Source: Candidatus Xenobia bacterium (GTDB taxonomy: Bacteria > Vulcanimicrobiota > Xenobia > Xenobiales > QWHO01). Taken from it: 64,000 nucleotides of DNA. The number at the start of each line of letters is the position of its first letter. Position 1 is the first letter of the stretch. The stretch is from assembly GCA_045863235.1 (NCBI GenBank), contig BTUM01000020.1:43287-107286 (forward strand). Direction: 5' to 3'. This document shows positions 36,089-64,000 of this stretch, in pieces. A program made the translations under genes and the position numbers. The notes under the pieces were generated by a model. That model had not been told where the DNA came from. It searched no databases and saw nothing but the letters and a program-made list of their open reading frames with translations.

Positions 36089-36089
36089 C

Positions 36090-37058
36090 TCAAACCGTCC
36101 GGCGCTGGGCCAACTGGCCCTGATCCACGAAGTTGAACAGGATGTCGTGAATGGTCCTCACGCTTGCGGTGTTGAGGTTTTGCTGAGGGCTCAACATTGC
36201 GTGAGGCACCTGCTCGGAGGGACCAAAGCGATACCAGCCGTTGCTGCTGGTGCAGCGCTCCAAGAAGGCGGCCACCCGCTTTGTGCCACTCAGCTTGTCG
36301 CCGTCGGTGGTCAGGATTTGCACCGGGCAACTGACCTTCTTGATCGTGTTGCCTACCAGGCGCATCGCCCGGGCCTGGCCCAGCGAGCCCTGGGTGTGTG
36401 GCGTGGGGTCGTTGGACTCGAGCACGTTCTTGTTGTAGGGGATCTGGTCGAGCACGAGACGGCCAAACAACCCGAAGGTGCAGTGGTCGAGGATGTCCGA
36501 GACGGCAAAGAGGATGCCGTGGGGGAGATCCCCACCGATATAGGGGGCCATGGCGGCCGCCCCGGCCAGCTGGTGTCGCTCGGCCATGCGCAGGGCCACG
36601 TTGCCCCCACCCGAGAGACCGATGGCGTGGATGGGGGCTCCCAGGCCGGCGGCCCGGGCGTAGGTCTGGTCGATGAACCGGTCCCAGGCCCCGGGCTGGC
36701 CCATCCGGGGGATGCGCACACCGGTGGGAAGGCCGTCCGTCCCCACGTAACCGTGGCCCGGCATGCGCGGGGCCAGAACGTTGTAGCCAGCGTCGTGGAA
36801 GCGTCCGGCCAACTCGCGAAACTGCCACGGCCCGGCGCTGTACCCGTGGAACATCAACACCGTGCCCTTCGCCTTTCCGGGTTGCTGCAAGAACAATGGC
36901 TCGTAGCCCGGTTGCAGCTTCAGGCCGTCGGGGTCGGGCGTGTGGACGAGCGCCTGGTCCTTGACCACGAGGGCTTCGAGCTCCGCCGCTACCTCGTGAG
37001 GCGTGGAGGCGCGAGTCGCGAGCCCTGAACGGTAAAGCTGTGCCGGTGCAACCTGCAT
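36090..37058 (-). CDS. Alpha/beta hydrolase (carboxylesterase-like)
   Basis: FHGYS, PRMPGHG, nucleophile elbow GLSGG, and a C-terminal His. Confidence 0.85.
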   Translation of the reverse strand: MQVAPAQLYRSGLATRASTPHEVAAELEALVVKDQALVHTPDPDGLKLQPGYEPLFLQQPGKAKGTVLMFHGYSAGPWQFRELAGRFHDAGYNVLAPRMPGHGYVGTDGLPTGVRIPRMGQPGAWDRFIDQTYARAAGLGAPIHAIGLSGGGNVALRMAERHQLAGAAAMAPYIGGDLPHGILFAVSDILDHCTFGLFGRLVLDQIPYNKNVLESNDPTPHTQGSLGQARAMRLVGNTIKKVSCPVQILTTDGDKLSGTKRVAAFLERCTSSNGWYRFGPSEQVPHAMLSPQQNLNTASVRTIHDILFNFVDQGQLAQRRTV

Positions 37059-37308
37059 GGACCGATTGTGCCCCGCGGGCCTGAAAGGCCGCTTAAAGCC
37101 GTCAGACCGCCATGGCTGCCTGGGTTCCGTCCAGACCCTGACCCATGGCCCGGCTTGCAGGCCGTAGCCCGCTCTCGAACGTCTGGCTGCACCCGGTCCG
37201 ACGCCGATCTGGACACGGCGGGACCTGGGGGTGGTTTGCTCAATACCCGAGAGCGAGCACAGGAGCGGCGGGCGGCTCCCTGGCTGGCTGGAGAGAGCGT
37301 CAATCGCC

Positions 37309-39936: not shown

Positions 39937-40227
39937 CGGGGTTAATTCGGTTTTTGGCGGAGTTGGACCTGCGTGCGCTCAGCAGCTGAAAAGCGAGCAG
40001 CTCGGAGTGGTCGAGCGCGCCCGGGCTGTCGAAGCCGGAGAACGGGTTGCCGGCGAGAGTGGGGAACCGGGTGCCGGGGTCGAGGGAGAAGCCGGCCACA
40101 TGCTCGGCCGTGCACATAGAGCACCAGGCTGCCGTCTGCGAGCTTGAGGCGAACAGAGAGTATACCGCCGGTATTGAAACCGAGCATATGTTCTGTCTGT
40201 GCCAGCCGGGTATCGGACGAGAGCGCG

Positions 40228-41373
40228 GTGGACGGCAATCTGCAGGCCTACTTCGCTACCTCCACCGCCGAGCTCGGCCCGGAGGCGACCGTGGCCGGCG
40301 TTGCTTTCGTTAAAGCCAACAGATCCGCTGCCGCCGCCCCTGCGGCCAGCTCCGCCCCGCCCGAGCTGGCCGATCTCGCCGAGCGACTCAAGAAGCTGTT
40401 CGCGAAGATCGACAAGAACAAGGACGGCATCCTGTCGCACGCCGAGGTTCAGCAGGCAATGAAGGACCCCACCATCAAAGGCAAGGATGCCGCCGCTCTG
40501 AACGTGCTGGTCCGGTATGGCGACCAGATCCAGTGGCTCAGCCACGATGAGAGCGACCGTCCCTACGACCAGAAGGGCGTCAGCCTGAAAGACCTCGAGC
40601 GCCTGGGCAGGCGCGACATGACCGAGCACCAGCGCATCAGCAAGGGTCACAACGCCGACTTCATGACGAAGGCGGCCAGGCTTTACAACCACTTCCAGAA
40701 GCAGATCGAGGGCCAGAGCAGCCAGCTCTTCGAGGGGATGCCCGACCCGAGCAGCGTCAAGCAAGGGCAGGTCGGCAACTGCTTCTTCCTGGCCGCCGTC
40801 GTGGCCCTGGCCTCCAGGAACCCCGGGGCCATCAAGAATATGATTAAGGAGAACCCGGACGGCTCCTACACCGTCACGTTCCCCGGCAAGCCCCCGGTCA
40901 AAGTCCCCGCCCTCACGGACGCCGAGAAAGCGGTCGCATCCCAATCCAACGGCCTCTGGGTGACCGTGCTGGAGAAAGCTTACGCCAAACTCACCAACCA
41001 GGGCGGCCCCAACCCGATGGAGCCCGGCTACATGGGCAGCGTGGATACCGGCCTCGACCCGTTCTCCAAGAACGGCCGCGCCGAGGGGATCTTTCTCAGC
41101 GGCGCCAAACCCGGCGACATCCGCTTGAAGCTGATCCAGGCCTTCAAAGAGGGCCGCCTGGTAGAAGCCGGCTGCGTGCAACCCAAAATGAAAGGCCTCG
41201 TGGCCGGGCACGCCTATACGGTGCTGTCTTTCGACGAAAGGTCGGACAAGCTGACGCTGCGCAACCCCTGGGGCAACACCGAGCCGGGCAGCGACGGCAA
41301 GGATGACGGGGTCTTCGTCATCACGTTCCCTGACTTCATGGCCAACTTCTTTTCGCTGGGGATCAGCGCATAA
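40228..41373 (+). CDS. Calpain-like (C2 family) cysteine protease with EF-hand
   Basis: QGQVGNCFFLAA (Cys), LEKAYAK, GHAYTV (His), LRNPWG (Asn); DKNKDGILSHAE EF-hand. Start uncertain (ORF open from 40144). Confidence 0.88.
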   Translation: MDGNLQAYFATSTAELGPEATVAGVAFVKANRSAAAAPAASSAPPELADLAERLKKLFAKIDKNKDGILSHAEVQQAMKDPTIKGKDAAALNVLVRYGDQIQWLSHDESDRPYDQKGVSLKDLERLGRRDMTEHQRISKGHNADFMTKAARLYNHFQKQIEGQSSQLFEGMPDPSSVKQGQVGNCFFLAAVVALASRNPGAIKNMIKENPDGSYTVTFPGKPPVKVPALTDAEKAVASQSNGLWVTVLEKAYAKLTNQGGPNPMEPGYMGSVDTGLDPFSKNGRAEGIFLSGAKPGDIRLKLIQAFKEGRLVEAGCVQPKMKGLVAGHAYTVLSFDERSDKLTLRNPWGNTEPGSDGKDDGVFVITFPDFMANFFSLGISA

Positions 41374-41569
41374 TACGGGGGGGCTGTACCGGAGCCGGCG
41401 GCTCGAAGACCGACGACGGCGCAAGCCGCCCGGCCGGCCGAATTGCTCGTCCTCGCGAACATTCAGGCGCCCCTTGCGGCCGTGGACAGCTCCGAATAGG
41501 GCGCTCCTTTCAGACGTCTCCGTGGACAGCTGTGGCAGGAGTGTCCTCCCCCGGAGCCAATCGTCCGGA

Positions 41570-42682
41570 GTGAGTCCGGACTACCACGAGCGACGCCAGT
41601 CGATTCTCTACCTCAAGAAGCAGGGCCGCCACCAGGAGGCGCTCGATCAGGTGCTGGCCCTGCAAGCAGAAGGAGTGGAGACCGTCGATCTGGCCGTCAA
41701 TCACGCCGACACCCTGGCCCGGCTGTTGCGCGCGGCCGAGGCCCTGGAGGTGCTCGAGAACGCCCGCCTGCGCTTTCCCCGTCTGCCTCTCTTCGGCCGG
41801 GCCCTGCTGGCCGGGCTCTTGCAGGGCGCCGGACGGCTGGAGGAGGCCAGGCTCGAGTTCGACCAGCTGGCCGGCGAGCCGGAGCTGTCGGTGGCCGTTG
41901 CCCGGCGGGTAGCCGATTTTCTCCAGTCTGACAACCAGTCCGAGCGCATCGGACCCATGCTCGAGCGCCTGGCCCGCGACGAGGCCGAGTGGTATCGCCT
42001 GCGGGCTCGTTTTGCTCCCGAGGGCGAAGCGCTCTCGCTCCTCAAGCGGGGCCACGAGCGCTTTCCCGACCACCGACCTATGTTTGAGGACTACGTGGTC
42101 TTGCGTCTCAAGCACGAGGGACCCGAGGTGATGGCCTCCGAGCTCGAGTCGCTGCTCTCGCTGGGCAGCCACAAAGACAGCCTGCGCCTGCGCGAGAGGC
42201 TGGCTCAGAGCCTGCGTGAGCTCAATGAGCCGGCTCGGGCCCTGGAGCTGCTCTTGGAGTGCGCTCGCCGCGAGCCCGGCAACGGCTACTACCTGGCCAA
42301 CGTGGGCTACGTCTATAAGGATCTTGGCGAGCCCGAGAAGGCGCTGGACTACCTGGCCCGGGCCATCGAGCTGCGACCAAACGATCGCTGTTCGGTCAAC
42401 TCGTTCGTCAAGACCAGCCGCGACTGGGGCCAGTCGGAGCGGGCGATGGAGCTGTTGCGCTTGCGCCTGGAGAAGGTGCCCGACGACCGGGCCGTCCTCA
42501 ACGGCTTTCTCACCGCCTGCCGCGATGCCGGTAAGCGCGAGCTGGCCCACGGCTACATCTCCGCGCGCGCCGCTCAGAACAAGGGGCTGTGGGGCGCTTA
42601 CATGAGCGTGTTCCGGGCTGGAAAGAAGACCACCCCCAAGAAGAAGGCTCGCAAGCCCGGGTCTCCGGTCGAGGAGCCTTGA
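41570..42682 (+). CDS. Tetratricopeptide repeat protein
   Basis: Multiple TPR-like units, e.g. YYLANVGYVYKDLGEPEKALDYLARAIELRPND; Lys-rich tail; GTG start inferred. Confidence 0.8.
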   Translation: MSPDYHERRQSILYLKKQGRHQEALDQVLALQAEGVETVDLAVNHADTLARLLRAAEALEVLENARLRFPRLPLFGRALLAGLLQGAGRLEEARLEFDQLAGEPELSVAVARRVADFLQSDNQSERIGPMLERLARDEAEWYRLRARFAPEGEALSLLKRGHERFPDHRPMFEDYVVLRLKHEGPEVMASELESLLSLGSHKDSLRLRERLAQSLRELNEPARALELLLECARREPGNGYYLANVGYVYKDLGEPEKALDYLARAIELRPNDRCSVNSFVKTSRDWGQSERAMELLRLRLEKVPDDRAVLNGFLTACRDAGKRELAHGYISARAAQNKGLWGAYMSVFRAGKKTTPKKKARKPGSPVEEP

Positions 42683-42766
42683 GATAGCCGAGGGCCCCTC
42701 GCTCGGCTCGCCGCAGGAGGCTCCCCGCCGGTTGGCGTGGAAAAGCTGAGCTGGAGGTGATTCGCC

Positions 42767-43549
42767 ATGGCAGAGGCCGCCCGGCCGCTCGAGGAGCTTG
42801 CGCCCCGCCCTGACATTTCGCACCTGATCACGGAGAACGATGAGCCCGTGGACAACTGGTTCCAGGAACGCCAGATACGTCTGCTCCCCGAGAGTCTCTA
42901 TACCTCCTGGGCTCGAGCCGGCCAGACGCGTCCGTTCGTGGCGGGCGCTGATGTCGGCCTCTTTTACAAGGTCTCCGAGCAAGCCGTGGTGCCGGATGTC
43001 ATCATCAGCCTGGACGCCGAGGTCCGGGACGATTGGTGGGAGGATCACAACCGCTCGTACATGATCTGGGAGTTTGGCAAGCCTCCCGACCTCGTGGTTG
43101 AGGTGGTCTCCAACCGCCAGGGTGGGGAGGAAGACAAGCTCTCCCGCTATGCTCAGGCCGGGGTCCCGTATTGCGTGATCTTTGACCCCTGCCACTTCTT
43201 GAGCAAGCGCGTCCTGCGCGTTTACGCCCTTCACGCCGGGCGCTACGTCGATGTGCTCGACCCTTCGTGGCTGGAGGAGATCGGGCTGGGTTTGACTCTC
43301 TGGCAGGGAAATTACGAAGGGATGACTTCAACCTGGCTGCGCTGGTGCGACCGGGAGGGACAACTGCTGCCGACCGGGCGCGAGCTGGCCGAGCAGGAGC
43401 GTCAGCGGGCCGAGCAAGAGCGGGAGCGGGCCGAGCACGAGCGTGAGCGGGCCGAGCACGAGCGTGAGCGGGCCGAGCACGAGCGTGAGCGAGCCGATCG
43501 ATTGGCAGTGCGCTTGCGCGAGCTAGGAGTCGAGCCCGATACTCTTTGA
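42767..43549 (+). CDS. Uma2 (DUF820) family putative endonuclease
   Basis: GGAGG RBS; E.DEPVD, VPDV, WEFGKPPDLVVEVVS, KL..Y...GVPY..IFDP motifs; coiled-coil tail. Confidence 0.9.
   Translation: MAEAARPLEELAPRPDISHLITENDEPVDNWFQERQIRLLPESLYTSWARAGQTRPFVAGADVGLFYKVSEQAVVPDVIISLDAEVRDDWWEDHNRSYMIWEFGKPPDLVVEVVSNRQGGEEDKLSRYAQAGVPYCVIFDPCHFLSKRVLRVYALHAGRYVDVLDPSWLEEIGLGLTLWQGNYEGMTSTWLRWCDREGQLLPTGRELAEQERQRAEQERERAEHERERAEHERERAEHERERADRLAVRLRELGVEPDTL
43388..43498 (+). repeat. About 5 x 21-bp coding repeat (AE[Q/H]ERER)
   Basis: GCCGAGCACGAGCGTGAGCGG-type units in the Uma2 tail. Confidence 0.85.
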
Positions 43550-43592
43550 CCAGAAAGGAACTCCTGCCCGGAAAAGCTAAAGCGCTGAGCCT

Positions 43593-46500
43593 ATGGCTCG
43601 CAAGCCCGCGGCCCAGGCTCCCCGCACCATCGGCGACCTCATCGAGGTTCCCCCGATCCGCACCGTCATTCAGCTGGTGGACGCCGGTCGCGCCGAGCTT
43701 CGCGACGAGCTGCTGGGCAGTTTCGTGTTTACCGGCGAGGTGGAGGCCTTCTTCGCTCGCCTGCTGCCGGCTCTGGCTCAACCCACCGGGCTGGGGGCCT
43801 TCCTCAAGGGCCACTACGGCAGCGGCAAGTCCCATTGCCTTACTTTCCTGCAGCGCCTGCTCGAGCGCGATCCCCTGGCCCGCGAGCGGCTCCCCGAGGG
43901 CCTGAGCGCCGTGGAGCGCGATTTCCTGGTCGTGCCCATCCCCCTGACGGCCTACAGCAACCGCACGCCGCTCGAGAGCATCGTGATGCTGGGCGTGGAG
44001 GAGGCGTTGCGCTCGGCCACCGGGACGCGCCCGGTGCTGGCCGACCGCACCCGTCTGCTGGAGAATTTCCGGCTCTTGATCCTGCCCCACTACCCCCTGC
44101 CGGGCTGGGAGGAGCTGGGCGAGGAGGAGGCTGCCAGGGCGGCCCTCGAGCTCTTGCGCAGCCTGCCCGAGAACCCCCTGCAGCTGAGCTTCGACCGGCG
44201 CCAGACCATGGACCGCCTGCAAGAGCACCTCCAGGGGCGCGCCCTGGTGCTGCTGCTCGACGAGCTTTCCGAGTTCTTGCGATCCAAGGGCAACAGCGCC
44301 GGCTACCACGAGGACATTCGCTATTTGCAGTTTCTGGGCGAGTGGGCCCAGCAGATGCCGCTCTTCGTGGTGGCCACGCTGCAGCAGTCGCTCGAAGAGC
44401 TCGGCTACGGCGAGGAGGAGACCTACCTGCGCATCAAGGAGCGCTATCCCCTGCGCTTCACCCTCTCGGCCCGCCACGTCTCCGACCTGGTGGAGGGTCG
44501 CCTGATCCGCCGCAAGCCGGGCGCCGAGGAGGTCCTCGAGCGGCTCTGGCGCGAGCTGGAGGAAGCCTATCCCGGACTGATCTCGCGCGAGCGCTTCCTC
44601 AAGACCTACCCGGTCCACCCCGCCACGCTCGAGCTGCTCGAAGGTCTGATGCCCATCTTCTCGCGTCACCGCGGGGTGGTGGATTTCGTGCATACCCGCC
44701 TGGCCGGCAACCCCCTCAAGGGCGAGAGCGGCCTGCTCGGCGAGCCGTTGGACCGGCTCTTGACGCCGGACACCATCTTTGACCACTTCGAGGAGCGTTT
44801 CAGCGAGATAGGCGAGCTCTCACCCTACCGCGATACCGTCTGGGCTCACCTTGCGGGCGAGATCCCTCGTCTTTTCGAGCAACCGCGCGAGCGCGAGATG
44901 GCCGAGCAGGCGGTCAAGATCCTGATTCTGGCCGAGGCCCGCCAGACCCCGGTGGCCCGCGACGCGGCTGGCCTTGCGCGTATGATGGCCCGGCGCATCA
45001 GCCGCCTGTCGGCCCAGGTGAACGTGGACTACCTGCGCGAGAACGTGCTCGAAGTGCTGATCGCCCGGTCCTCGTTCGTGGCCCGGCGAGGCCAGGAGTA
45101 CTTCCTCGATCTCGAGGCCAACGTCAACCAGCTGCTCAGCCGGCGCTTGCGAGCGGTTCGTCCCGACAAGGTGGGCGACTGGGGCCAGCTGCTCTCGCTG
45201 GTCAAGCGAAACGAGTTGCCGCTGGCCGAGTACGCGGGCCTGCGCAAGAGCACCCTCAAGTGGGAGAATTCGGTGCGCGAGGGCCTGTCGGGCTGGCTGG
45301 ACGTACGCGCGCTTCCCTATCAGGAGTTCATCCGCACCCTCAACCGGCTGGAGGAGGACTCGCTGGACTTTGCCGTCCATCTGGGCCTGCCCGAGGAGGG
45401 CCAGGGCGAGGCGGCTCGGGCCCTGCTCGAGCACGCCCGGCAGAGTCGCATGGCGCCCACGGTGCTATTCTGGTTGCCGACCCCGCCCGACGCCGAGGCG
45501 AGCGAGTTGGCCCGCGACGTGCTGGCTCACCGCCGGGTGGCCCACGATCTCGAGGAGGAGGGCCAGCACGATCCGGCCCGCCTGGTGCGGGCCAACCTGG
45601 AGAAGCTGGAGCGAAAGCTCGAGCGAGCCCTGGCCGACCTCTACGCGGCCGGGCGGGTGCTGCGGGTGGGGGCAGAGGAGAAGGCTCCGGCCGGCGACCC
45701 CATGCAGTGGAGCGAGGTGCTCGCGCGGCTCTTGAAGCCCCGCCTGGCCGAGCTCTATCCCCGTTTTGCCAGCGTGGCTCCCTTCACCGACCTTCTCACC
45801 CGCAAGGCCCTCGAGCGCCTCTGGGCAGAGTTCCTGGCCGAAGGGCGGGCGGCTCGTCCCGGCCAGGCCGACGTTCTCATTGAGACCCTGCTCAAGCCTC
45901 TGGGGCTGGTTCAGGAGGCGAGCGACCACTACGCCCTGCAGGTCGACCCCATCGGTTCTCCGGTGCAGGCCGAGCTGCTCGACCGGTTGCTCCCCGACCA
46001 GAAGATCCCCTTGAGCCAGCTGCGACGGGCCCTGCAGAAGGGTCCCTTCGGGCTGCTCGCGGATCAGTTCGCGCTGCTGGCGGCGGGACTGATCCAGGCC
46101 GGTCGGGTCACCCCCTACGTCAACGACCGCGCTACCCGCCTGGGCTCGATTCGTGACCTGACGCAGCCCCGGGTGGAGGCGCTGGGTCAGGCCCAGATGC
46201 TGGAGGCGAGCCAGCTCGAGCGCCTGGGGGAGCTGGCCTTCTTGTGGCCAGGCGAGAGCCTGTTGCCTCTCAGCCCGACGCGCCTTCGCACCCTGTGGGA
46301 GAGCGCCCTGGCCAGCCTGAGCGCCTTGCGCGAGCAGGCTGACGAGCTGCACGCGCTCACGGGCAAGCTGCCGAGCTGCCCGGCCTTGCCGCTCGAGGAG
46401 CTGGCCGCCCGGGCCCGTCGCGTCGAGCAGATGCTGTCCGCGGTGGGCTCACCGGCCGGGGCCGCCGTGGGCCTGCGCCGGCTGCTCGAGCAGGACGTGG

Positions 46501-48464
46501 CCGAGCTCGAGCGAGCGTTTCGCGAGCTGCCCTTGTGGCTCGAGCTCTTGCGCCGTCACGGTCGGGCCATCGCCGCCGCCTGGCGTCGCTGGGAGGAAGC
46601 GCCCGACGTGCGCTCTCGCCTGGGCGAGCTGGTCGCTCATCCCGAGCGCTGGGAGGAGCTCTCGCTCGAGCTCTCCGAGCGCGAGGCAACCTATCGCCAG
46701 AGCTATACCGAGGCGCACCGCGAGTTCTATGCGGGCGAGGTGTTCAGCCTCAAGAAGCGCCTTCTGGCCACGGGCGAATGGGCTGCGGTGGAGGCCCTGG
46801 GCCCGGTGCTGGGGCTGGAGGCGCGTCCCAGCGCCGCTTCCCTCAAGCACCTCCTCGAAGAGCTCCCCCGCCCCTGCCGTCACCGTCTCGAGGAGCAGCT
46901 TCTCCTGGGCGTGCGCTGCGCCTGTGGCTTCGTGCCCGGCCAGAGCCCGCCCGAGGTGGAGGACCCGGGACCGCAGGTGCGTCAGGGCCTGGTCTCGGCC
47001 TGCCAGGCTCTGTGCGAGGCCCACGAGCGGCTGGACGTTTTCGTGCGCAACCTGCGCCAGGTAGGCCAGGAGGCCCGCGCGGCCCGCCTCGAGCAGGTGC
47101 TGGCGGCGGCCTCCGAGCTGGCCGCCGAGCCCGCCCTGGAGGGAACCTGGACGCGCCTGTCCACGCACCTTGCCGGCCTGGTCGACGGGCCCACCGTGGA
47201 GAGCTTGAGCCGGGCTCTGACCGGCCAGGTCCTGGTAGCGCCTCGTCGCCTGGAAGATCTGGTGCGCCGCCTGGAGGATCAGCGCTTACCGCTCTCTCGC
47301 CTGCGCCAGCATTTCGAGGAGTGGTTGGAAGCGGGCTCGCTACGTCCCGACAGCTGGGTGCACGTGCAGTACGGGCTTGACGCCGAGCGGGGCCTGGGGG
47401 CCTGGCTTGCGGCCTGGCTGGCCCAGCACTCGCTGGAGGCGGGCCGCGAGCTGCGGCGGCGCTTCCAACTCGAGGACGCGGGAGCGCCCTCGGGCTCGGC
47501 CGAGGAGGCTTACGCGCGGCTTTCCGAGGTTTTGCCTGTGTCAGCTCTCGATCCGGTCGCCGGAGCGCTGCAGGAGCGTATCTTTCCAGAAGTCTCGCTG
47601 CGCCTCTGTCGATCAGCTCTGTACCGGGCGCTGGAGGACCCTTCCGTGGCCCGCCGCCTTTTGGAGCTGCCGCGCATTGATTTCGAGCACCTGGAGGTGG
47701 CCCGCCTGGCCGCCGAGGTGCTCTCCTGCGAGTCGAGCGACTATCCCACCGTGGCCCGCCTGCTGCCCGAGTGGGGCTGCGCCCGCCACCTCGATCTTGC
47801 CGCCGGCCTGCTCGAGCCTGCGCTGGAAGCGGGCATTTCGGCCCGCCTGGAGGCTCTGCTGGAGGGCTGTGAGTTGCCTTCCCTGGGCCTCGGGGAGGCC
47901 CCCGCCGCTCTGGCGGGAAGCTGGAACGGCCCGCTGGTGGTGCTGGTGGTGGACGCCCTGCGTTGGGACCTGTGGGATCTCATGAGGGGCCTGGTGGAGG
48001 CCGAGCTGGGCGCTCCCGCGCAAGAGCAGCTGGCCCTCTCGCCGCTCCCCACGGTGACCACGCAGGCCCGCTCGGCCCTGCTAGGCGGCGAGGAGGAAGC
48101 TCCGCCCGGCAGCGACGGCCTCTTGCTCGCTCGTCCCGTGGTGCTGGTCAAGAACGCCGATGACAGGCGCAATCGCTCGCGGGTGGAGGGGCTCCTGGCT
48201 TCGCCCCCGCCGGTGCTGATGCTGCATCTGTCCTTCGTGGATCGGCGGCGCCACGAGTCGAGCCTCGAGCTCTGGCCGCTCTACCAGGAGCTGCTCGGCG
48301 AGGCACGCGTGCGGCTGGTGCCGCTGCTGCGCCTGATCCGGCCCGGCTGCCGGATCTTGCTGCTGGCCGACCACGGCTTTCTGGGGGTGGAGGAGGGCGA
48401 CCGGGCCCACGGAGGCGCGCGTCCTCAAGAGCGGGTCGTGCCCGCCGTGGTCTGGGAGCGTTAG
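43593..48464 (+). CDS. BREX BrxC/DUF6079-like P-loop ATPase fused to a C-terminal PglZ-like domain
   Basis: IGDLIEVPPIRTVIQL N-terminus, Walker A GHYGSGKSH, Walker B LLLDELSEFL, YPVHP, C-x13-CACGF Zn motif; C-terminal VDALRWD, LPTVT, ADHGF, HGG..PQE.VVP. Confidence 0.8.
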   Translation: MARKPAAQAPRTIGDLIEVPPIRTVIQLVDAGRAELRDELLGSFVFTGEVEAFFARLLPALAQPTGLGAFLKGHYGSGKSHCLTFLQRLLERDPLARERLPEGLSAVERDFLVVPIPLTAYSNRTPLESIVMLGVEEALRSATGTRPVLADRTRLLENFRLLILPHYPLPGWEELGEEEAARAALELLRSLPENPLQLSFDRRQTMDRLQEHLQGRALVLLLDELSEFLRSKGNSAGYHEDIRYLQFLGEWAQQMPLFVVATLQQSLEELGYGEEETYLRIKERYPLRFTLSARHVSDLVEGRLIRRKPGAEEVLERLWRELEEAYPGLISRERFLKTYPVHPATLELLEGLMPIFSRHRGVVDFVHTRLAGNPLKGESGLLGEPLDRLLTPDTIFDHFEERFSEIGELSPYRDTVWAHLAGEIPRLFEQPREREMAEQAVKILILAEARQTPVARDAAGLARMMARRISRLSAQVNVDYLRENVLEVLIARSSFVARRGQEYFLDLEANVNQLLSRRLRAVRPDKVGDWGQLLSLVKRNELPLAEYAGLRKSTLKWENSVREGLSGWLDVRALPYQEFIRTLNRLEEDSLDFAVHLGLPEEGQGEAARALLEHARQSRMAPTVLFWLPTPPDAEASELARDVLAHRRVAHDLEEEGQHDPARLVRANLEKLERKLERALADLYAAGRVLRVGAEEKAPAGDPMQWSEVLARLLKPRLAELYPRFASVAPFTDLLTRKALERLWAEFLAEGRAARPGQADVLIETLLKPLGLVQEASDHYALQVDPIGSPVQAELLDRLLPDQKIPLSQLRRALQKGPFGLLADQFALLAAGLIQAGRVTPYVNDRATRLGSIRDLTQPRVEALGQAQMLEASQLERLGELAFLWPGESLLPLSPTRLRTLWESALASLSALREQADELHALTGKLPSCPALPLEELAARARRVEQMLSAVGSPAGAAVGLRRLLEQDVAELERAFRELPLWLELLRRHGRAIAAAWRRWEEAPDVRSRLGELVAHPERWEELSLELSEREATYRQSYTEAHREFYAGEVFSLKKRLLATGEWAAVEALGPVLGLEARPSAASLKHLLEELPRPCRHRLEEQLLLGVRCACGFVPGQSPPEVEDPGPQVRQGLVSACQALCEAHERLDVFVRNLRQVGQEARAARLEQVLAAASELAAEPALEGTWTRLSTHLAGLVDGPTVESLSRALTGQVLVAPRRLEDLVRRLEDQRLPLSRLRQHFEEWLEAGSLRPDSWVHVQYGLDAERGLGAWLAAWLAQHSLEAGRELRRRFQLEDAGAPSGSAEEAYARLSEVLPVSALDPVAGALQERIFPEVSLRLCRSALYRALEDPSVARRLLELPRIDFEHLEVARLAAEVLSCESSDYPTVARLLPEWGCARHLDLAAGLLEPALEAGISARLEALLEGCELPSLGLGEAPAALAGSWNGPLVVLVVDALRWDLWDLMRGLVEAELGAPAQEQLALSPLPTVTTQARSALLGGEEEAPPGSDGLLLARPVVLVKNADDRRNRSRVEGLLASPPPVLMLHLSFVDRRRHESSLELWPLYQELLGEARVRLVPLLRLIRPGCRILLLADHGFLGVEEGDRAHGGARPQERVVPAVVWER

Positions 48465-48465
48465 C

Positions 48466-51400
48466 TCAACCGCCGTGGGCCAGATCCTCGCTTAACTTCC
48501 CCTCCCTTATTCCGTAGAGCCCGGCGTAGCGCACCGGCTCGGGCGCCAGCTTCGCCCAGTGCTCGGCGTACTGCTCCACCTGACCTGCGTAGCGCGCCAC
48601 CAGCTCGTCCAGGCTCCTGCGGTCGGTCTTGTAGTCCACCAGCTCCCACCCCTCCTCCTGCTGCAGGGCCAGATCCAGCACACCAAAGATCAGCCGGTCC
48701 TCCACCCGGGCCCCGAAAGGCACCTCCACCAGGCGCTGGCCGGCTTGCATGGCCCGGGCCCAGAAGGGGGTCGTCTTCACCTGCTCCACCGTCTCCAGGG
48801 CCAGCGGTATCAGCTGGCTCAACTCCGGCGACTCGAAGGTGAACCAGCGAGCCAGTCTTGCCAACTCGTCCGAGCCCAGTGAAGGTTTGCGCATGAGCTG
48901 CTCGAGCAGCCGGTGGATCAGCTCGCCCCAGGCGGCACCCGCGTCGGGACGCTCGCTGCTCAGGGCCTCCTCGGGGATGGGCGCGCTCCACACCTGGAGG
49001 CGCTCCTCGTGGTTGCTGGCGGTGACCGAGGTACGCCGCCAGCTCAGCTCGCGGGCGCTCTCCCAGTCGCACACAGGGGGGTGCTTGCGACGCTTGCGGG
49101 GGCGAGACGGCTCGAGCGCCGGGGGCAGCTCGTCGGCTTCGCCCAGGAACTCGTCGAAAGCCGCCCAGGGGCGGTGGGCCGAGCCGTGAGTGCCGGTCCA
49201 CTGGCTCACGACCAGCTGCTCGCGGGCCCGGGTGGCGGCCACGTAGAGCAGGCGGATCCGCTCCGCATTCAGATAGCCGATCTCGGCCGCCTCGTGCTCG
49301 GGCCAGTCGGGGGGCTGGGCGAAGATGCGATACTGGTTGCGCATGGTGAGAAATCCCCGGGCGCCCCCCTCGGCTCGCAGAATACGCCGGTCGGCCCGCA
49401 CCGCCAAGCCCCCGGTGGGGGCCACCAGGAAGACGACCCGGGCCTCCAGGCCCTTGGCCTGGTGGAGGTTCATCAACCGGACCACGTCCGAGCGTCCGCA
49501 ATCGAGGGCCAGAGGACGTTCCTGGCGCACGCTGAGAAGCCCGCGCAGGGCCTCGGAGAAGGTCAGGCCCTCCGAGCAGGCCAGGCGGAGCGCATCGGCG
49601 ATCTGCAAGAGCTCGGCGGCGCCTCCCGGTCGGGCGGCCGCCAGGGCCAGCAGGCCGGAGTCTTCCAGCACTTTCTCCACGGCGGCCCCGATGGGCAGGC
49701 GGCCGAGCAGCTGGTGCATGGCGCGCAGGCGCTGCAGGGCCTGGTTGACCACCCGCTCGCCCTGATCAGATGGGTAGAAGGCGCCCCCCTGCAGGCGGTG
49801 GCGATAGAGAGTGTCGTCGTCGATCCCAAAGAGCGTGCCGCGCAGCACGCCCACCAGGCTCACCTCGTCTTGCGGGTCGCTGAGCACGCTCAAGAGCTCG
49901 AAGAGAGCCCCCACCTCCTCGTCGGCGCTGGCGTGACCGCCGGTGACCTCGCAGGGCACGGCCCGCTCGGCCAGGGCCTGGGCGTACAGGCTGAGGTGCT
50001 CGCGCCTCATGGTGAGCAGGAGGAAGTCGCCGGCGCGATAGTCGCCTGAGGCGATGGCCCCCGAGATCCACTCGGCCACCTTCGGAGCCTCGCAGTCGCT
50101 GGTCTGGGAGTATCGCTCCGAGCTAACCGGGCTGCGCCACAGCCGGGCCTGGCCCGTCTTCACCGGCACCAGGGGCGAGAAGGCGGCTTGCTCGTCGGTA
50201 GGCTCTTCAGGCAGCAGGCGGCTGAAGACGCGGTTGGTCCATTCGCAGAGCCCGGGCAGCGAGCGGAAGGAGGCGCTGAGGGTCACGGTGCGGTCCATGC
50301 GCTCGCGCACCTGGTTGTAGGTCTCGATGTCGGCGCGCCGGAAGCGGTAGATCGACTGCTTGGGGTCGCCCACGATGAAGAGGGCTCCGGGGCGCAGCTC
50401 CAGCTGGCTCCAGTCGCTTTCTTCTTGCCCCGGTCGGGCGGCCAGCAGGAACAACACCTCGGCCTGGATGGGATCGGTGTCCTGGAACTCGTCCACGAAG
50501 AGCCAGCGGTAGCGGCGCTGCAGGCGCTCGCGCACCTCGGGACGCTCGCGCAAGAGTCGGGCGGCGATCGTCAGAAGGTCGTTGAAGTTCAGCAGCCCCC
50601 GGCGGCGTCGCTCTTCTCGGTAGCGCTCACGCACGGTCTGGAGAAAGCCGGTGCAGAGGGTGTAGAGGAAGGCCTTCCAGTCGCGCAGGAAGGGCTCTGC
50701 GATTTGCTCTCGGAAGGCGTTGGCTCGGGCCAGGGCGCGGTCGCAGTTGGCCCGCCGCTCGGCCGGGCTCTCGCCCCACCATTTCTGCACCGATTTGGGC
50801 TCGCGCTCAAAGAGCGACAGAAGACCGACCAGGTTGAAGAGATCGCGGGAGGCGCGACTTTTCTTGCCCAGGAACTGATCGCTTCGCTTGAAGAGCTCAC
50901 AGGTGGTGTGGACGGCCTGAACGCTCCGGGGAAGAAGACCCTCGATCTCTTCGGCAAACTGGTCCACGGCCTTCCAGGCGGCCTCGACGTCGGGCCGGGG
51001 ATGGTTGCCGGGGGGGAAGTCGACCTCGCCGTTATCGCACACGATGGCCAGGGCGTCGAGCAGATCCTCGGGAGCTGCCCCCGACTCGGACAGCTCGCGG
51101 CGCACCGCCACGCCCTCGGGCTCTTCGAGGCAGCGGCGGAAGATGAAGTTGCGCAGGGTCTGATCCTCGGCTTCGTCGGTCTCGCGAAAGCCGGGGGTGA
51201 TGCCGGCCTCGACGGGAACCTCGCGCACGAGCGAGGCGCAAAACGAGTGCACCGTGCCCAGAAACATGCGGTCGAGCTCTTGCAGGGCCTGGCTCAGGAG
51301 GGGCGAGGGCTCCTCGGCAATGGCCTGCTCGAGCGCGAGCTGCAGGCGGCCGCGCAGCTCGGAGGCGGCCTTGCGGGTGAAGGTCACCGCCGCCATCTCG

Positions 51401-51549
51401 CCGGTCCGGTAGCGGCCGGAGCGCAGTCCGGCCACCATGCGCGAGGAGAGGCTTTGGGTCTTGCCCGAGCCGGCGGGGGCCTCCACCATCAAGTTGAAGG
51501 CGAGATCGCTGGCAATCTGCTCGCGCGCTTTCTGGTCGGGCAGGGTCAT
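48466..51549 (-). CDS. addA: AddA-like UvrD helicase with C-terminal PD-(D/E)XK nuclease
   Basis: EAPAGSGKT, TFTRKAA.EL, GTVHSFC, VDEFQDTD, VGDPKQSIYRFRRAD, HQAKGLE, LLYVAATRA and LVDYKTD motifs. Confidence 0.88.
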   Translation of the reverse strand: MTLPDQKAREQIASDLAFNLMVEAPAGSGKTQSLSSRMVAGLRSGRYRTGEMAAVTFTRKAASELRGRLQLALEQAIAEEPSPLLSQALQELDRMFLGTVHSFCASLVREVPVEAGITPGFRETDEAEDQTLRNFIFRRCLEEPEGVAVRRELSESGAAPEDLLDALAIVCDNGEVDFPPGNHPRPDVEAAWKAVDQFAEEIEGLLPRSVQAVHTTCELFKRSDQFLGKKSRASRDLFNLVGLLSLFEREPKSVQKWWGESPAERRANCDRALARANAFREQIAEPFLRDWKAFLYTLCTGFLQTVRERYREERRRRGLLNFNDLLTIAARLLRERPEVRERLQRRYRWLFVDEFQDTDPIQAEVLFLLAARPGQEESDWSQLELRPGALFIVGDPKQSIYRFRRADIETYNQVRERMDRTVTLSASFRSLPGLCEWTNRVFSRLLPEEPTDEQAAFSPLVPVKTGQARLWRSPVSSERYSQTSDCEAPKVAEWISGAIASGDYRAGDFLLLTMRREHLSLYAQALAERAVPCEVTGGHASADEEVGALFELLSVLSDPQDEVSLVGVLRGTLFGIDDDTLYRHRLQGGAFYPSDQGERVVNQALQRLRAMHQLLGRLPIGAAVEKVLEDSGLLALAAARPGGAAELLQIADALRLACSEGLTFSEALRGLLSVRQERPLALDCGRSDVVRLMNLHQAKGLEARVVFLVAPTGGLAVRADRRILRAEGGARGFLTMRNQYRIFAQPPDWPEHEAAEIGYLNAERIRLLYVAATRAREQLVVSQWTGTHGSAHRPWAAFDEFLGEADELPPALEPSRPRKRRKHPPVCDWESARELSWRRTSVTASNHEERLQVWSAPIPEEALSSERPDAGAAWGELIHRLLEQLMRKPSLGSDELARLARWFTFESPELSQLIPLALETVEQVKTTPFWARAMQAGQRLVEVPFGARVEDRLIFGVLDLALQQEEGWELVDYKTDRRSLDELVARYAGQVEQYAEHWAKLAPEPVRYAGLYGIREGKLSEDLAHGG

Positions 51550-54398
51550 CAGGGCACCTCGGCGGCCCGCCGGCGATAGTCGAGCAGCGGGTTGTGGCCT
51601 GCGAGCTTGTTCCTGGCTGCCTCGTCGGTATTCGCCCGGCAGGCGTTCTGGAAGTTGCAATAGGTGCAGTCGTTCTTGCGGCTCTCGGTGTGCAGGAAGG
51701 CGCCCGTCTCAAGCGGCTCGAGCACGTCTTGCAGCAGGGCCTCGAGGTGGGCCGCGTCGGGGGAGGGGAAGAAGAGCCAGGGCCGCTCGCCGCGCGTGGT
51801 GGGGAAGCAGTAGCTAAGCCCCCGCACGCTCTCGCCGGTGAGCTCCTGGGCGACCAGCGCGTAGAGGGCGTGCTGCAGCAGACGCCCTCCCTGAAAGACG
51901 GCCCCATCCACGGTTTTGAGCCGGCGGCCGGTCTTGTAGTCGACCACCTCGATACCCTGCCCGAGGCGGTCGATGCGGTCGATGCGCCCCCGCAGGGGCA
52001 GGTTCATGACCTTGACCGGCTCGGCGCGGGCCAGGGGCTCGTCCTCGAGCCCGTCCTGGCCGAAGGCCACCTCGCAGCCGATGGGGGTGCGCTCGGGATG
52101 GCTCAGCTCGAGGCGCAAGAAGCACTCCAGATCGCGCTTGAGCATGCGCGTCTCGCCTCTCTCGACGGCCCGGGAAGGAGGAGGATATTCGCGCCGGAAC
52201 GCTTCCAGCGCCTCCTCGAGGAGCTGCTCGAGCCGGGGCGTATCGCGCTCCTTGTCGGGTCGCCACCCGCGCCGGCGAAGCTCGCGATGGTAGGTGGCGA
52301 AAAGGTCGTGCAAGAGCGAGCCCCGGGCCGCCTCGTCGAGCCAGCGGTCGGGGTCGGGGCGAGACAGATCGAGCGGTCGCAGCCTGAGAGCGCGCTCGAG
52401 GAAGTCGCGGAAGGGGCAGGCCGCCAGGCCTTCGAGCCGGCTGGCCGAGACAGGCTCTCCGGTGCGGCGGGGATCGAGCCGTCCGGCCGCAGAAGGCACA
52501 TAGCCGTCGTAGACGGTGAAACGGTCGGAGGCGCGCTCCTCGGCCGCCCGGCGGCCGGCGGCCAGATTGGGGAAGCTCTCCAGGGCCGGGTCGGGGTCGA
52601 GCAGCCAGCGCTCGGTCACGCTGGCGGCGACCTCCGGGCTGGCGTAGCCCACCGGCTCGCCCAGCCAGTGCTCGAGGTCTTCATAGCTCTTCAGCGGGTG
52701 CACCTTGCGGGCGGCCTCAAAAAAGAGCCATGAGGGCAAAAGCTCCTGCCCGCTTCGCAGGTCGCGGGTGGAGTAGCTGAGGGTGACCGCCCCGGTAAGG
52801 TTGGCCAGTTGCTCTCGGATGCGGTGCAGGCGCTCTGCGCCCCGGTCGTGCGAGAGGGCCAGCCCGGGGTGGAGGGCGGTGCGCTCTTCGTCGGTCAAGA
52901 TGGCGTCCTCCACGGCTCCAAGACCGATGCGGCCCTCCTCCAGGCCCAGCACGAAGGTGTGGGGACGGGCGGTCAGCCCCACCCGGTCGAGGGTGGTGAC
53001 GTGCAGGTGCCCCGGCAGGGCCCGCGCGCCCAGATAGTCTAGCGGCTCGAGCTTCTGGCGCAGCCAGCGCACGGTCTCCTCCACGCTCCAGCGCTGGCCC
53101 TCGAGCATCAAGAGCTCGTCGAAAGCGCGGGTGAGGCGCTGGTGGGCGGCGTGGTCCTCGGGCCCGCGCCTGGTGACGTGCTCGTCCGTGATCGATTGCA
53201 GTCCGCGCACCCAGGTGGCCCAGTCGGCGGTGTGACGCGCGTCGACCGGGAGGCGTCGAAAGAGACTCGCGATCCACTTGCCAAGCTGCTCCACCTGCCC
53301 GGCCTGCTCGCTCTGCCCGCGTTGCAGAAGCCAGGCTTTGAGGCGGGCCAGGTGGGTGGCGTAGGTCTCGCGCTCCCAGGTGGCTTCGGAGCGCTCGAGC
53401 AGCGAGCCGGCCAGGGAGGGGTCGAGATCGGGCGGACGCACCAGCCGCGAGAGCAAGAGCTCGCGCAGGTCGAAGGCCGAGTAGCGCTGCTCGATCCAGG
53501 TCAAGAGGCCGAGCAGAGCCTGGCCGGGACGAGAGAGCGAGAGCGGCAGCCCGCGCTCGAAGGTGGCCGGCAGGCTCAGCCCGGCCAGCTTGTCCTTGAG
53601 CAGGGTGAACGACTCGGGATCGGCGCAGGCCAGCTCGACCTGATCGAGCTTGAGCGAGCCGATGCGGCGCAAGACCTCCATGATCTCGGCGTCGCGGCGT
53701 CCGGCGCGGAAAAATCGGGGTTTGGTGGCTTTGGGTTGCTCCGCCTGGCGAGGGCTCGTCGCGAGCCGTCGGGGCAGCGGCAACTGCGGAGCCCGGGAGC
53801 GCAGCTTCTGGCCGGGGAGCCGATCGAGGAAGGCGCGCTCGAGCGGGGCCCACACGGTGGAGGGGAACTCGAGCACCAGGTCACTGACTTGCACGGGAGT
53901 CTGGCTGGCGCGGGCGTAGACGGTGGCGCGGTCGGCCAGGCCCCGGGCCTTCAGGAACTTCTCATAGGCTTTGAGCAGCGCCGTCAGCTCTCTTTGCTTG
54001 GCGCCGGTCAGCGCCTTGCCCAGCTCGCGATGGGTCAGGCCGGCCATGCGCAGCTCGCTGACCGCCGTCCAGAGGGCTTCGGCCATGCCGGGTTGCTCGA
54101 GCAGCTCGGCGAAATGGCGGGGGGTCTTCGGGGACAGCTCGAGCATGAGCTTGTGAATGAGGCTTGGCCCGAGCCCCTCGGGCTTGGGGCTCAGCCCGGC
54201 CGCCAGAAGGTCGGGCGCAGCTGCCTCGAGGGCCATTTCAAAGGGGGTGAGCAAGCGCAGGTTGGCCCAGCTCGTCCCCTGGTGGAGCAGGGCCTCGGAG
54301 AGGGTCCACTTGAGGCTGCGATAGGGGAGAAAGACCCACTTGGCGCGCGTGGGATGGGCGCGGCAAAGCTCGGCGAGTTGTGCCAGGAAAGGGCTCAC
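51549..54398 (-). CDS. addB: AddB-like inactivated helicase with PD-(D/E)XK nuclease and Fe-S cysteines
   Basis: SASRLE.LA.CPF, RG.LLH, LRGRIDRID, VDYKTG, LQ.ALY and CTYCNFQNAC motifs; coupled to addA. Confidence 0.85.
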   Translation of the reverse strand: MSPFLAQLAELCRAHPTRAKWVFLPYRSLKWTLSEALLHQGTSWANLRLLTPFEMALEAAAPDLLAAGLSPKPEGLGPSLIHKLMLELSPKTPRHFAELLEQPGMAEALWTAVSELRMAGLTHRELGKALTGAKQRELTALLKAYEKFLKARGLADRATVYARASQTPVQVSDLVLEFPSTVWAPLERAFLDRLPGQKLRSRAPQLPLPRRLATSPRQAEQPKATKPRFFRAGRRDAEIMEVLRRIGSLKLDQVELACADPESFTLLKDKLAGLSLPATFERGLPLSLSRPGQALLGLLTWIEQRYSAFDLRELLLSRLVRPPDLDPSLAGSLLERSEATWERETYATHLARLKAWLLQRGQSEQAGQVEQLGKWIASLFRRLPVDARHTADWATWVRGLQSITDEHVTRRGPEDHAAHQRLTRAFDELLMLEGQRWSVEETVRWLRQKLEPLDYLGARALPGHLHVTTLDRVGLTARPHTFVLGLEEGRIGLGAVEDAILTDEERTALHPGLALSHDRGAERLHRIREQLANLTGAVTLSYSTRDLRSGQELLPSWLFFEAARKVHPLKSYEDLEHWLGEPVGYASPEVAASVTERWLLDPDPALESFPNLAAGRRAAEERASDRFTVYDGYVPSAAGRLDPRRTGEPVSASRLEGLAACPFRDFLERALRLRPLDLSRPDPDRWLDEAARGSLLHDLFATYHRELRRRGWRPDKERDTPRLEQLLEEALEAFRREYPPPSRAVERGETRMLKRDLECFLRLELSHPERTPIGCEVAFGQDGLEDEPLARAEPVKVMNLPLRGRIDRIDRLGQGIEVVDYKTGRRLKTVDGAVFQGGRLLQHALYALVAQELTGESVRGLSYCFPTTRGERPWLFFPSPDAAHLEALLQDVLEPLETGAFLHTESRKNDCTYCNFQNACRANTDEAARNKLAGHNPLLDYRRRAAEVP

Positions 54399-54457
54399 CT
54401 GCTCGGCCTTCGCGGCCCGGGGCAGGTTGCCCCTCGGGGGCGCTCGAACCCCGTGGC

Positions 54458-63909: not shown

Positions 63910-64000
63910 CGAACGTATGTTCCGGGCTCCGCCCCGCAGGCGGATCATGATCCGCTCCCGAGCCGGATCATGACGAACGCATGTTCCGGGCTCCGCTCCG
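63910..64000. repeat. Two 27-bp direct repeats, 64-bp period, truncated by window end
   Basis: CGAACGTATGTTCCGGGCTCCGCCCCG (63910-63936) vs CGAACGCATGTTCCGGGCTCCGCTCCG (63974-64000), 2 mismatches. Confidence 0.75.

Follow-up and report, generated by a model that had tools for sequence, protein, structure and literature searches.

The fusion gene and its partner

We analyzed a window of 64,000 nucleotides from a Candidatus Xenobia bacterium (contig BTUM01000020.1), in which a single gene joins a BrxC-like ATPase to a PglZ-like domain, both being core components of bacteriophage exclusion (BREX) systems. A preliminary description of this DNA, made from its letters alone, had presented the gene as one uninterrupted open reading frame (ORF) and as a compact, possibly undescribed BREX-derived defence protein. 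The reading frame is indeed continuous, and all the motifs named at the time lie where they had been placed: GHYGSGKSH at residues 73-81, LLLDE at 220-224, YPVHP at 339-343 and C1095..C1109-x-C1111, followed in the C-terminal part by VDALR at 1453-1457 (nt 47949), LPTVT at 1485-1489, ADHGF at 1592-1596 and HGG-x4-E-x-VVP at 1606-1617. None of 5000 shuffled fusion proteins had the full active-site pattern in its last 260 amino acids.

The BREX-core origin also stood. The single-protein picture proved incomplete: the fusion gene and a dedicated gene for a protein made of tetratricopeptide repeats (TPR) constitute a two-gene unit, co-located, co-distributed and co-diverging (Table 1). The TPR gene had been overlooked in the window, where an inserted Uma2 gene hides the unit.

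When the genes of 34 family loci were compared all against all, the sole recurring neighbour was an all-TPR protein of about 300-390 amino acids, found at 24 loci. Its gene lies upstream of the fusion in 21 of the 23 family loci with at least 3.5 kb of flank, and its stop codon commonly overlaps or abuts the fusion start; the two genes are divergent in three loci of a clade with proteins of 1420-1460 amino acids. The two loci without an adjacent TPR gene are L051, whose ATPase falls outside the family clade, and G062, where the partner is found 9.5 kb upstream on the same strand. No TPR partner was detected in 88 canonical BrxC loci, 52 of them at least 10 kb long. Among 251 genomes of the host phylum, a TPR profile (to which 10 of 13 carriers had contributed, and for which the best 8 candidates per genome were scored) matched 14, of which 13 carry the fusion; the match in the remaining genome, 65% complete, is to a solo paralogue only. 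Over 20 loci, TPR and ATPase distances co-vary (rho 0.42, equalled in 0 of 2000 permutations), as shared ancestry alone could also produce. The ratio of nonsynonymous to synonymous substitution rates (dN/dS) of the TPR gene is 0.168. A predicted complex of TPR residues 70-350 with fusion residues 8-725 scored 0.56, compared with 0.39 for the single control; these domains only were modelled, and the scores argue on neither side as to binding. An Atlas search with the TPR protein returned generic TPR clusters only.

Solo TPR paralogues without an adjoining fusion were also detected, in the host (G000:C24:85117-86049, L209) and in G001, G002 and G003.

Table 1. Genes of the unit, the gene inserted between them, and the parts of the fusion protein (positions in the window).
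Feature	Positions	Strand	Basis or remark
All-TPR partner gene, about 370 amino acids	41570..42682	+	GTG start chosen by codon score and homologues; longest ORF from 41303
Uma2-family putative endonuclease gene, between TPR gene and fusion	42767..43549	+	Pfam Uma2
BrxC-PglZ fusion gene	43593..48464	+	1623 amino acids, no internal stop
ORC/Cdc6-type AAA+ ATPase with lid, residues ~8-450	43614..44942	+	BrxC proteins are the top Foldseek hits; alignment to 9zdx/9zn5
Winged helix, alpha+beta domain and further winged helix, residues ~455-870	44955..46202	+	Secondary structure of the model; boundaries approximate
Long helical/coiled-coil arm with putative zinc site	46206..47162	+	Invariant H1042, C1095, C1109, C1111
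BrxC C-terminal strand-helix-helix-strand subdomain, end of BrxC module	47175..47372	+	Model; PglZ-less members terminate here
PglZ-derived helical units and connector, residues ~1262-1445	47376..47927	+	Structural alignment to PglZ 9zn5_B; preceded by a linker whose length varies
Cap-less PglZ catalytic core, alkaline-phosphatase/NPP fold	47928..48461	+	D1454, T1489, D1550, H1554, D1593, H1594, H1606

Anatomy of the fusion protein

Residues 1-1260 are a complete, full-length BrxC, closest to that of type 3 BREX. In Pfam, the protein matches DUF6079 (E 4.7e-24), the family to which type 3 BrxC belongs. A family profile aligned with a type 3 BrxC over residues 11-928 (hhalign, probability 99.8), and the helical arm, His/Cys motif and end subdomain have their counterpart in the last 400 residues of that BrxC (probability 84). 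When a profile of 40 fusion homologues was compared with solved structures, it found BrxC (9zdx, E 1e-16) and the response regulator PorX (7pv7, E 1e-7). The model of residues 1-1010, with a mean predicted local distance difference test (pLDDT) value of 87.5, has BrxC (9zdx, 9zll) as its best fold match. The ATPase residues K79 (Walker A), D223/E224 (Walker B), R284 and R360 do not vary among the 40 homologues aligned; R280/R284 align with K326/R330, the arginine-finger residues of Acinetobacter BrxC (PMC13326643), and R360 is probably sensor 2.

The winged-helix region (residues ~455-870) is probably a DNA-binding arm, as suggested by the secondary structure of the model, the hhalign alignment and the BrxC architecture given in PMC12839542. 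Residues H1042, C1095, C1109 and C1111, invariant in 40 of 40 homologues and with an equivalent His/Cys motif in type 3 BrxC, probably bind one structural zinc; a Rad50-type zinc hook was set aside for the Cys motif because all four ligands sit in one chain. The strand-helix-helix-strand element modelled at about residues 1216-1259 fits the distal BrxC subdomain described in PMC12839542. As BrxC is dimerized by its last 80 residues (PMC13326643), the end subdomain is probably a constitutive dimerization element by analogy. Family members devoid of PglZ stop exactly after this subdomain, and the boundary between the BrxC and PglZ parts is thereby fixed.

The preliminary description had PglZ start at about nt 47930. 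The catalytic core is found there; the PglZ-derived part, however, reaches further back, to about residue 1262 (nt 47376), as the helices that precede the core can be aligned with PglZ too. In the model of residues 990-1623 (pLDDT 91.7), only helices lie between residue 1262 and the core. The best structural match of this model is PorX (Z 19.9, 249 residues aligned), followed by the BREX PglZ 9zn5_B (Z 13.6, 347 aligned), and residues 1262-1623 correspond to residues 225-749 of the latter. An Atlas feature search with residues 1261-1623 retrieved PglZ clusters (score 0.93). The seven residues of the catalytic site match D239, T272, D361, H365, D415, H416 and H500 of PorX and are invariant in 40 of 40 homologues, and R1493 occupies the place of PorX R276. 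With a widened spacing, the full D/T/DxxxH/DH/H site is present in all 152 family members that bear PglZ; a pattern with narrower spacing matched 105 of the 152.

Pfam, PADLOC and NCBIfam leave the C-terminus unclassified by themselves, and it is the fold that decides its identity. The Pfam PglZ match (24.5 bits) is marginally below the cut-off of 25. The NCBIfam BrxC model gives the fusion 68.9 of the 400 bits required, a cut-off that a genuine type 3 BrxC likewise fails to reach (57), and the PADLOC BrxC score is 56 bits, compared with 936-1751 for type 3 controls.

The PglZ domain is shortened, as had been proposed, and its cap is lost. The distance from the DH pair to the last His is 14-23 residues in 6 family members and 81-125 in 10 stand-alone PglZ proteins, and is 6-21 residues in 140 of the 152 members measured. 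As defined in PMC12839542, the PglZ family has a three-stranded cap and an N-terminal Swi2/Snf2-like domain. No cap strands are seen in the model between DH and the last His, and the inactive Swi2/Snf2-like domain, which binds BrxB, is not found either, since the alignment begins at PglZ residue 214-225. As modelled, the PglZ half is thus catalytically complete by its residues and has neither the cap nor the BrxB-binding N-terminal domain.

The nearest capped relatives of the C-terminal domain are stand-alone PglZ proteins of ~720-750 amino acids (P0066, P0068, P0073, P0075, P0100, P0105 and P0112), which score far below every BREX PglZ cut-off.

Authenticity of the fusion

The fusion ORF is real, natural, conserved and under purifying selection. 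Full-length, stop-free versions occur in seven other genomes among 60 relatives. The junction is bridged by assembled contigs of two public runs (X1, 46433-48589; X3, 46274-47880), and no insertion or deletion was found within the ORF in the contigs of four public runs, of which X1 possibly represents the source sample. Comparison with a 96%-identical relative gives a dN/dS of 0.093 for the gene as a whole and of 0.054 for its PglZ core, where it is lowest. An artefact, whereby misassembly or chance read-through would have joined two genes, has a practically negligible probability: the source assembly consists of 166 contigs and in the four runs the gene is never covered from end to end by one contig, but the artefact is refuted by the conservation of the fusion in numerous independent records and phyla, besides the bridged junction and the purifying selection.

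Contigs of an RNA run (X4) also cover the fusion gene, although such coverage is no proof of transcription. A sequence titled 'uncultured Burkholderiales bacterium' (L001) is 96% identical to the fusion gene, whose other close relatives are Eremiobacterota; L001 is probably a mislabelled bin.

Distribution and phylogeny of the family

We collected 219 proteins, 166 of which scored above 200 bits on the N-terminal profile, and both halves are present in 152 of the 166. A whole-length search gave 52 homologues, 48 of them with the C-terminal DHG domain, and querying with residues 1-560 yielded 298 clusters at E values of at most 1e-25, of which 120 were listed. According to the sources of the listed homologues, carriers belong to Eremiobacterota/Xenobia, Armatimonadota, Thermodesulfobacteriota, Acidobacteriota, Planctomycetota, Moorella and other Bacillota, and several candidate phyla. 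Moorella glycerini, a named species, has an annotated homologue (P0174), so that work on the unit need not depend on metagenome bins. The closest named relatives would place the host in Vulcanimicrobiota/Eremiobacterota. In the host phylum the fusion was found in 16 of 251 genomes, with near-complete close kin such as G007 lacking it.

A tree of 71 AAA+ domains groups the family into a single clade (Shimodaira-Hasegawa-like approximate likelihood ratio test, SH-aLRT, 91), whose sister group is three type 3 BrxC proteins (SH-aLRT 82), while those of types 1 and 6 stand apart; the tree was a quick one with a midpoint root and no bootstrap, and both supports are below the usual mark. Members without PglZ occur at about five places inside the clade, a scatter that points to repeated loss or fission. 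The simplest history would be that the core of a type 3 BREX underwent fusion, that the methyltransferase, BrxA and BrxF were lost, and that a TPR protein was acquired as partner.

Relationship to BREX and BREX-related systems

The fusion unit does not belong to BREX types 1-6, nor to the BR or BRC systems, because the separate genes, the methyltransferase, the BrxA/BrxB components and the PglZ cap that were looked for are not there. The observations behind this conclusion are given below. For the neighbours, 176 genes from 35 loci were scanned with Pfam (112 + 64), leaving out 10 of the first 138 genes, 12 of 48 further ORFs and most genes of L158-L161.

(i). Two features of BREX are present: an AAA+ ATPase of the BrxC/PglY family, recognized by DUF6079, fold and hhalign, and a PglZ with an intact two-metal site. 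Both halves are thus homologues of BREX core proteins, as the preliminary description had it. The two are encoded by a single ORF, not by separate genes in a locus of 4-8 genes.

(ii). No DNA-modifying enzyme (PglX/PglXI, or the PAPS reductase of type 4) belongs to the fusion loci. A six-frame motif scan of ORFs of at least 150 amino acids (46 loci, 542 kb, many loci being short contigs) detected one methyltransferase, of type II, beside the PglZ-less locus L040, and the PAPS reductase family is not among the Pfam matches shown for the 176 neighbours.

(iii). BrxA-like and BrxB/iSTAND-like components are universal in BREX (PMC12839542). Among the 176 neighbours Pfam found no BrxA, BrxB, BrxL or HerA family, a search that very divergent copies could escape; PADLOC found no BrxA/BrxB-like component in the window, no unannotated neighbour recurs, and the fusion models contain no iSTAND domain.

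(iv). The pattern of BR types 1-3 is not reproduced, as the ATPase matches DUF6079 and not DUF499, there is no methyltransferase, and a helicase is adjacent in some loci only. The BRC hallmarks (HerA/FtsK translocase, DUF4007 and active STAND) were not found among the neighbours.

Several related arrangements were observed. The host has a BREX-6-like locus (G000:C7:5319-16586, L156) with brxA, brxB, brxC, pglZ, brxD and brxHI, in which brxC and pglZ overlap with no methyltransferase between them; a full BREX-6 methyltransferase (1930 bits) is on another contig (G000:C39:67011-70955, L223), so that action in trans is possible in principle. At L040:344-6486, a PglZ-less ATPase of the family is directly followed by a methyltransferase of type II and an endonuclease of the EcoO109I type. 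At L192:12624-17390, a type 3 BREX PglZ stands where BrxHII would be, fused behind 920 residues that matched nothing in Pfam or PADLOC.

Genomic neighbourhood

The Uma2 gene is missing at the corresponding place in other family loci. It has a 21-nt repeat tail, and a 92%-identical copy, flanks included, is found at an unrelated site of G001, which indicates that it behaves as a mobile unit; the gene is a lineage-specific insertion outside the conserved unit. Downstream of the fusion lies an AddB-AddA-like helicase/nuclease pair (48466-54398, minus strand), convergent with it and with stop codons one base apart. Neither the Uma2 gene nor AddAB is conserved beside the fusion, and both were rejected as partners for this reason.

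Upstream of the TPR gene there is a calpain-family (Peptidase C2) protease with an EF-hand (40228-41373), which is not conserved beside the unit either; at L030, L043 and L003, SNF2 or UvrD helicases are found directly upstream of the TPR gene. Some 20 kb of the window (~34700-54400) are missing at the matching site of G001, where the flanks join and the genes of the segment are scattered elsewhere in the genome. No mobile-element repeats or boundaries were seen around the unit except a short multi-copy repeat at 41480-41531, whose unit recurs at 40-nt spacing in G003. Another short repeat (63910-64000) recurs with a spacing of 64 nt on numerous contigs in both G001 and G003, and could represent CRISPR-like arrays.

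A proposed function and its alternatives

The explanation that we favour, and that we hold about equally liable to prove right or wrong, is that the two genes, an offshoot of type 3 BREX without a methyltransferase, act against invading DNA as a defence nuclease that is independent of methylation and gated by the TPR protein. Elsewhere, both BrxC and PglZ serve in defence (PMC12839542). BrxC of BREX dimerizes through its end region and forms an ATP-driven oligomer on DNA (PMC13326643); by analogy, the fusion chain would dimerize via the subdomain near residues 1200-1260, and ATP would drive oligomerization of its AAA+ domains on DNA. In BREX, residues 1-98 of PglZ bind BrxB, which bridges to BrxC (PMC13326643). 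Both that binding domain and the brxB gene are gone from the fusion system, and a covalent tether may take over the role of that bridge in keeping PglZ at BrxC. The two-metal site, open and without a cap, could then nick or cut the bound DNA, PglZ being a metal-dependent nicking nuclease in BREX work (PMC12205998). A BREX core that persists without the methyltransferase that defines self must use another trigger, and we hypothesize that the TPR protein tells self from non-self where no methylation mark exists. It might either restrain the ATPase or activate it upon meeting a protein that derives from the invader or DNA of unusual structure; in immune ATPases of the STAND class, sensor domains built of TPRs are known (bioRxiv 10.64898/2026.10.19.760177).

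Defence is favoured by a rare, patchy and cross-phylum distribution, by sites that vary (the unit occupies a different one in each of four genomes of the genus), by fast divergence, with the fusion down to 25% identity where RpoB keeps 70%, and by the enrichment of its neighbours in defence or toxin-antitoxin genes (18 of 176; for genes drawn at random from the host the count is 1 of 128, Fisher p 5e-4). The type II methyltransferase and endonuclease adjoining the PglZ-less member at L040 speak for it as well.

A number of observations weigh against a defence function. The neighbour categories were assigned after the data had been seen and the baseline is one genome; at the level of loci the enrichment is not significant (11 of 35 versus 1 of 12, p 0.15), and most neighbours are housekeeping genes. 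No family member was detected in IMG/VR viral contigs, which gave distant canonical BrxC matches only, nor in phage records or plasmids. In one family the site of the unit is stable across genera. The composition of the fusion (GC 0.70, 0.87 at third codon positions) is host-like, as is that of the host's own BREX-6. Across the phylum, a fusion tree made with FastTree agrees for the most part with RpoB (over 15 genomes, the identities of the two proteins correlate with a Spearman coefficient of 0.70), an objection blunted by the fact that the canonical BREX-6 BrxC also forms an order-wide clade. Finally, the PglZ module has been lost about five times and is, as a consequence, not always essential.

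Part of this evidence admits another explanation, unlikely in our judgement though not markedly so: the unit may be a domesticated genome-maintenance factor. Its ORC/Cdc6-like ATPase would load on stalled forks or damaged DNA, the cap-less phosphodiesterase would trim or nick, and the TPR protein would serve as an adaptor to repair or replication proteins, with the cooperation of helicases such as RecQ. The largely vertical inheritance and the host-like composition speak for it. So does the finding, adverse to a defence role, that in five related loci (L025-L028 and L035) a RecQ equivalog (649.5 bits; cut-off 640.2) separates the TPR gene from the fusion, and so do UvrD, AlkD, RecJ, LigD and ImuB-like genes, which make up 6 of 176 neighbours versus 0 of 128 (p 0.04). 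PorX offers a precedent of a PglZ that left defence. AddAB adjoins the fusion in the window, but is convergent with it and is not a neighbour in the 96%-identical relative. A maintenance factor is also hard to reconcile with the fast divergence and with the 235 genomes, out of the phylum's 251, in which the fusion was not found, near-complete close kin included. No SOS-type box was found upstream in 20 of 20 loci with four patterns that may not be those of the host (0.05-0.16 matches expected by chance).

Improbable, in turn, is a PorX-like regulated nucleotide phosphodiesterase, in which PglZ would degrade cyclic or linear oligonucleotide signals under the control of the ATPase and the TPR protein. 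Structurally, the C-terminal part matches PorX best, and cyclic oligoadenylates are cleaved by both PorX and PglZ (PMC9757075, PMC12205998). However, the cap beside the PorX active site is absent in the fusion, no cyclase or CRISPR type III gene recurs nearby, and 1260 residues of DNA-loading machinery would be left unexplained.

Still less credit is due to the idea that the TPR-ATPase pair is the working unit, for instance as a DNA clamp that blocks replication, with PglZ as an optional effector. The PglZ-less members end cleanly after the BrxC module, and one of them (L047) retains its TPR gene, the context of PglZ-less clade members being available for two only; besides, a nuclease-dead PglZ left the BREX of E. 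fergusonii partly active (PMC12205998). On the other side, PglZ is kept in 152 of 166 family members, always with its full site, and its core is the part of the gene with the lowest dN/dS.

Very improbable, finally, is an accessory BREX core that would rely in trans on a methyltransferase whose gene lies elsewhere. Unlinked BREX parts do occur, the host's own BREX-6 methyltransferase and core being on different contigs, and 10 of the 16 carrier genomes have some PglX/PglXI-like match. Nevertheless, the type 3 methyltransferase profile found no match in 12 of the 16, and 6 of the 16 lack a match to either of the two methyltransferase profiles used; three of these 6 (G005, G041 and G072) are 92-97% complete and have no other PglZ.

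Returning to a methylation-independent defence nuclease, a bolder version can be proposed, although we are inclined to doubt it: the BREX core would have been rebuilt as a modification-free, pattern-recognition immunity, in which the TPR protein senses a protein or DNA structure of the invader and licenses a single-chain BrxC ring to load onto DNA and deliver the cap-less PglZ nuclease. If true, this would join restriction-like and NLR-like defence lineages in two genes, and would give the first minimal unit for reconstituting BrxC-PglZ coupling. How BREX blocks phage and how BrxC controls the PglZ nuclease are still open questions, and unstable multi-protein complexes hamper work (PMC13326643); a natural single chain with both predicted activities and one partner makes the coupling directly testable. 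If the function is not defence, the unit would be an immune machine domesticated for genome maintenance.

Comparison with known systems

In the full-text literature searched, which left most subscription papers and the supplement of PMC12839542 outside its coverage, no description of a BrxC-PglZ fusion or of its TPR partner was found, in agreement with the earlier view that the protein might be undescribed. The available main text of PMC12839542 does not contain 'TPR', 'tetratricopeptide' or 'BrxC-PglZ', while the neighbourhood tables of its supplement could hold members among unassigned matches.

The closest known system is type 3 BREX (BrxF, BrxC, PglXI, BrxHII, PglZ and BrxA), whose BrxC (Pfam DUF6079, PADLOC PDLC02482/02487) is the sister of the fusion ATPase in the tree and has the same full-length architecture, with His/Cys motif and end subdomain. 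The type 3 PglZ (NF033449) aligns with the fusion PglZ core (probability 96.7), and both are devoid of a C-terminal immunoglobulin or winged helix-turn-helix domain. Differences are that the fusion is one chain, that BrxF/BrxB, BrxA, PglXI and BrxHII are not found at its locus, that its PglZ has lost the N-terminal domain and the cap, that a TPR partner has been gained, and that profile scores are far below those required for membership.

The BrxC:BrxB:PglZ core of type 1 BREX from Acinetobacter (9zdx, 9zll, 9zn5; PMC13326643) resembles the fusion in its AAA+ fold, ATP residues and C-terminal dimerization region, as well as in the helical region and core of PglZ. There, BrxB bridges BrxC to residues 1-98 of PglZ, whereas the fusion has neither the bridge nor its binding domain, and its tether is covalent and placed at the far end of the coiled coil.

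PorX, a response regulator of the type IX secretion system with a PglZ domain (7pv7, 7pvk; PMC9757075), provides the best structural match for the C-terminal part, helical bundle included, and shares all seven site residues and the arginine at the R276 place. Unlike PorX, the fusion has no receiver domain and carries a DNA-loading ATPase; the cap differs too, as D415 and H500 of PorX are 85 residues apart and D1593 and H1606 of the fusion only 13.

BR type 3 and BRC (PMC12839542) are similar in being BREX-related, with a shortened PglZ and a BrxC-like ATPase. However, BR type 3 has a DUF499 ATPase, a methyltransferase, a helicase, iSTAND and a stand-alone PglZ that keeps its cap, and BRC has HerA/FtsK, DUF4007 and STAND. 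Neither is a fusion, and none of their parts recurs at the fusion loci.

A last resemblance is to STAND immune ATPases with TPR sensors (bioRxiv 10.64898/2026.10.19.760177), and to the Avs type, in that an AAA+-class NTPase, a nuclease and TPRs make up one functional unit. In the fusion unit, by contrast, the TPRs are encoded by a separate gene, the ATPase is of the BrxC type and the effector is C-terminal, so that the resemblance is one of analogy and not of homology.

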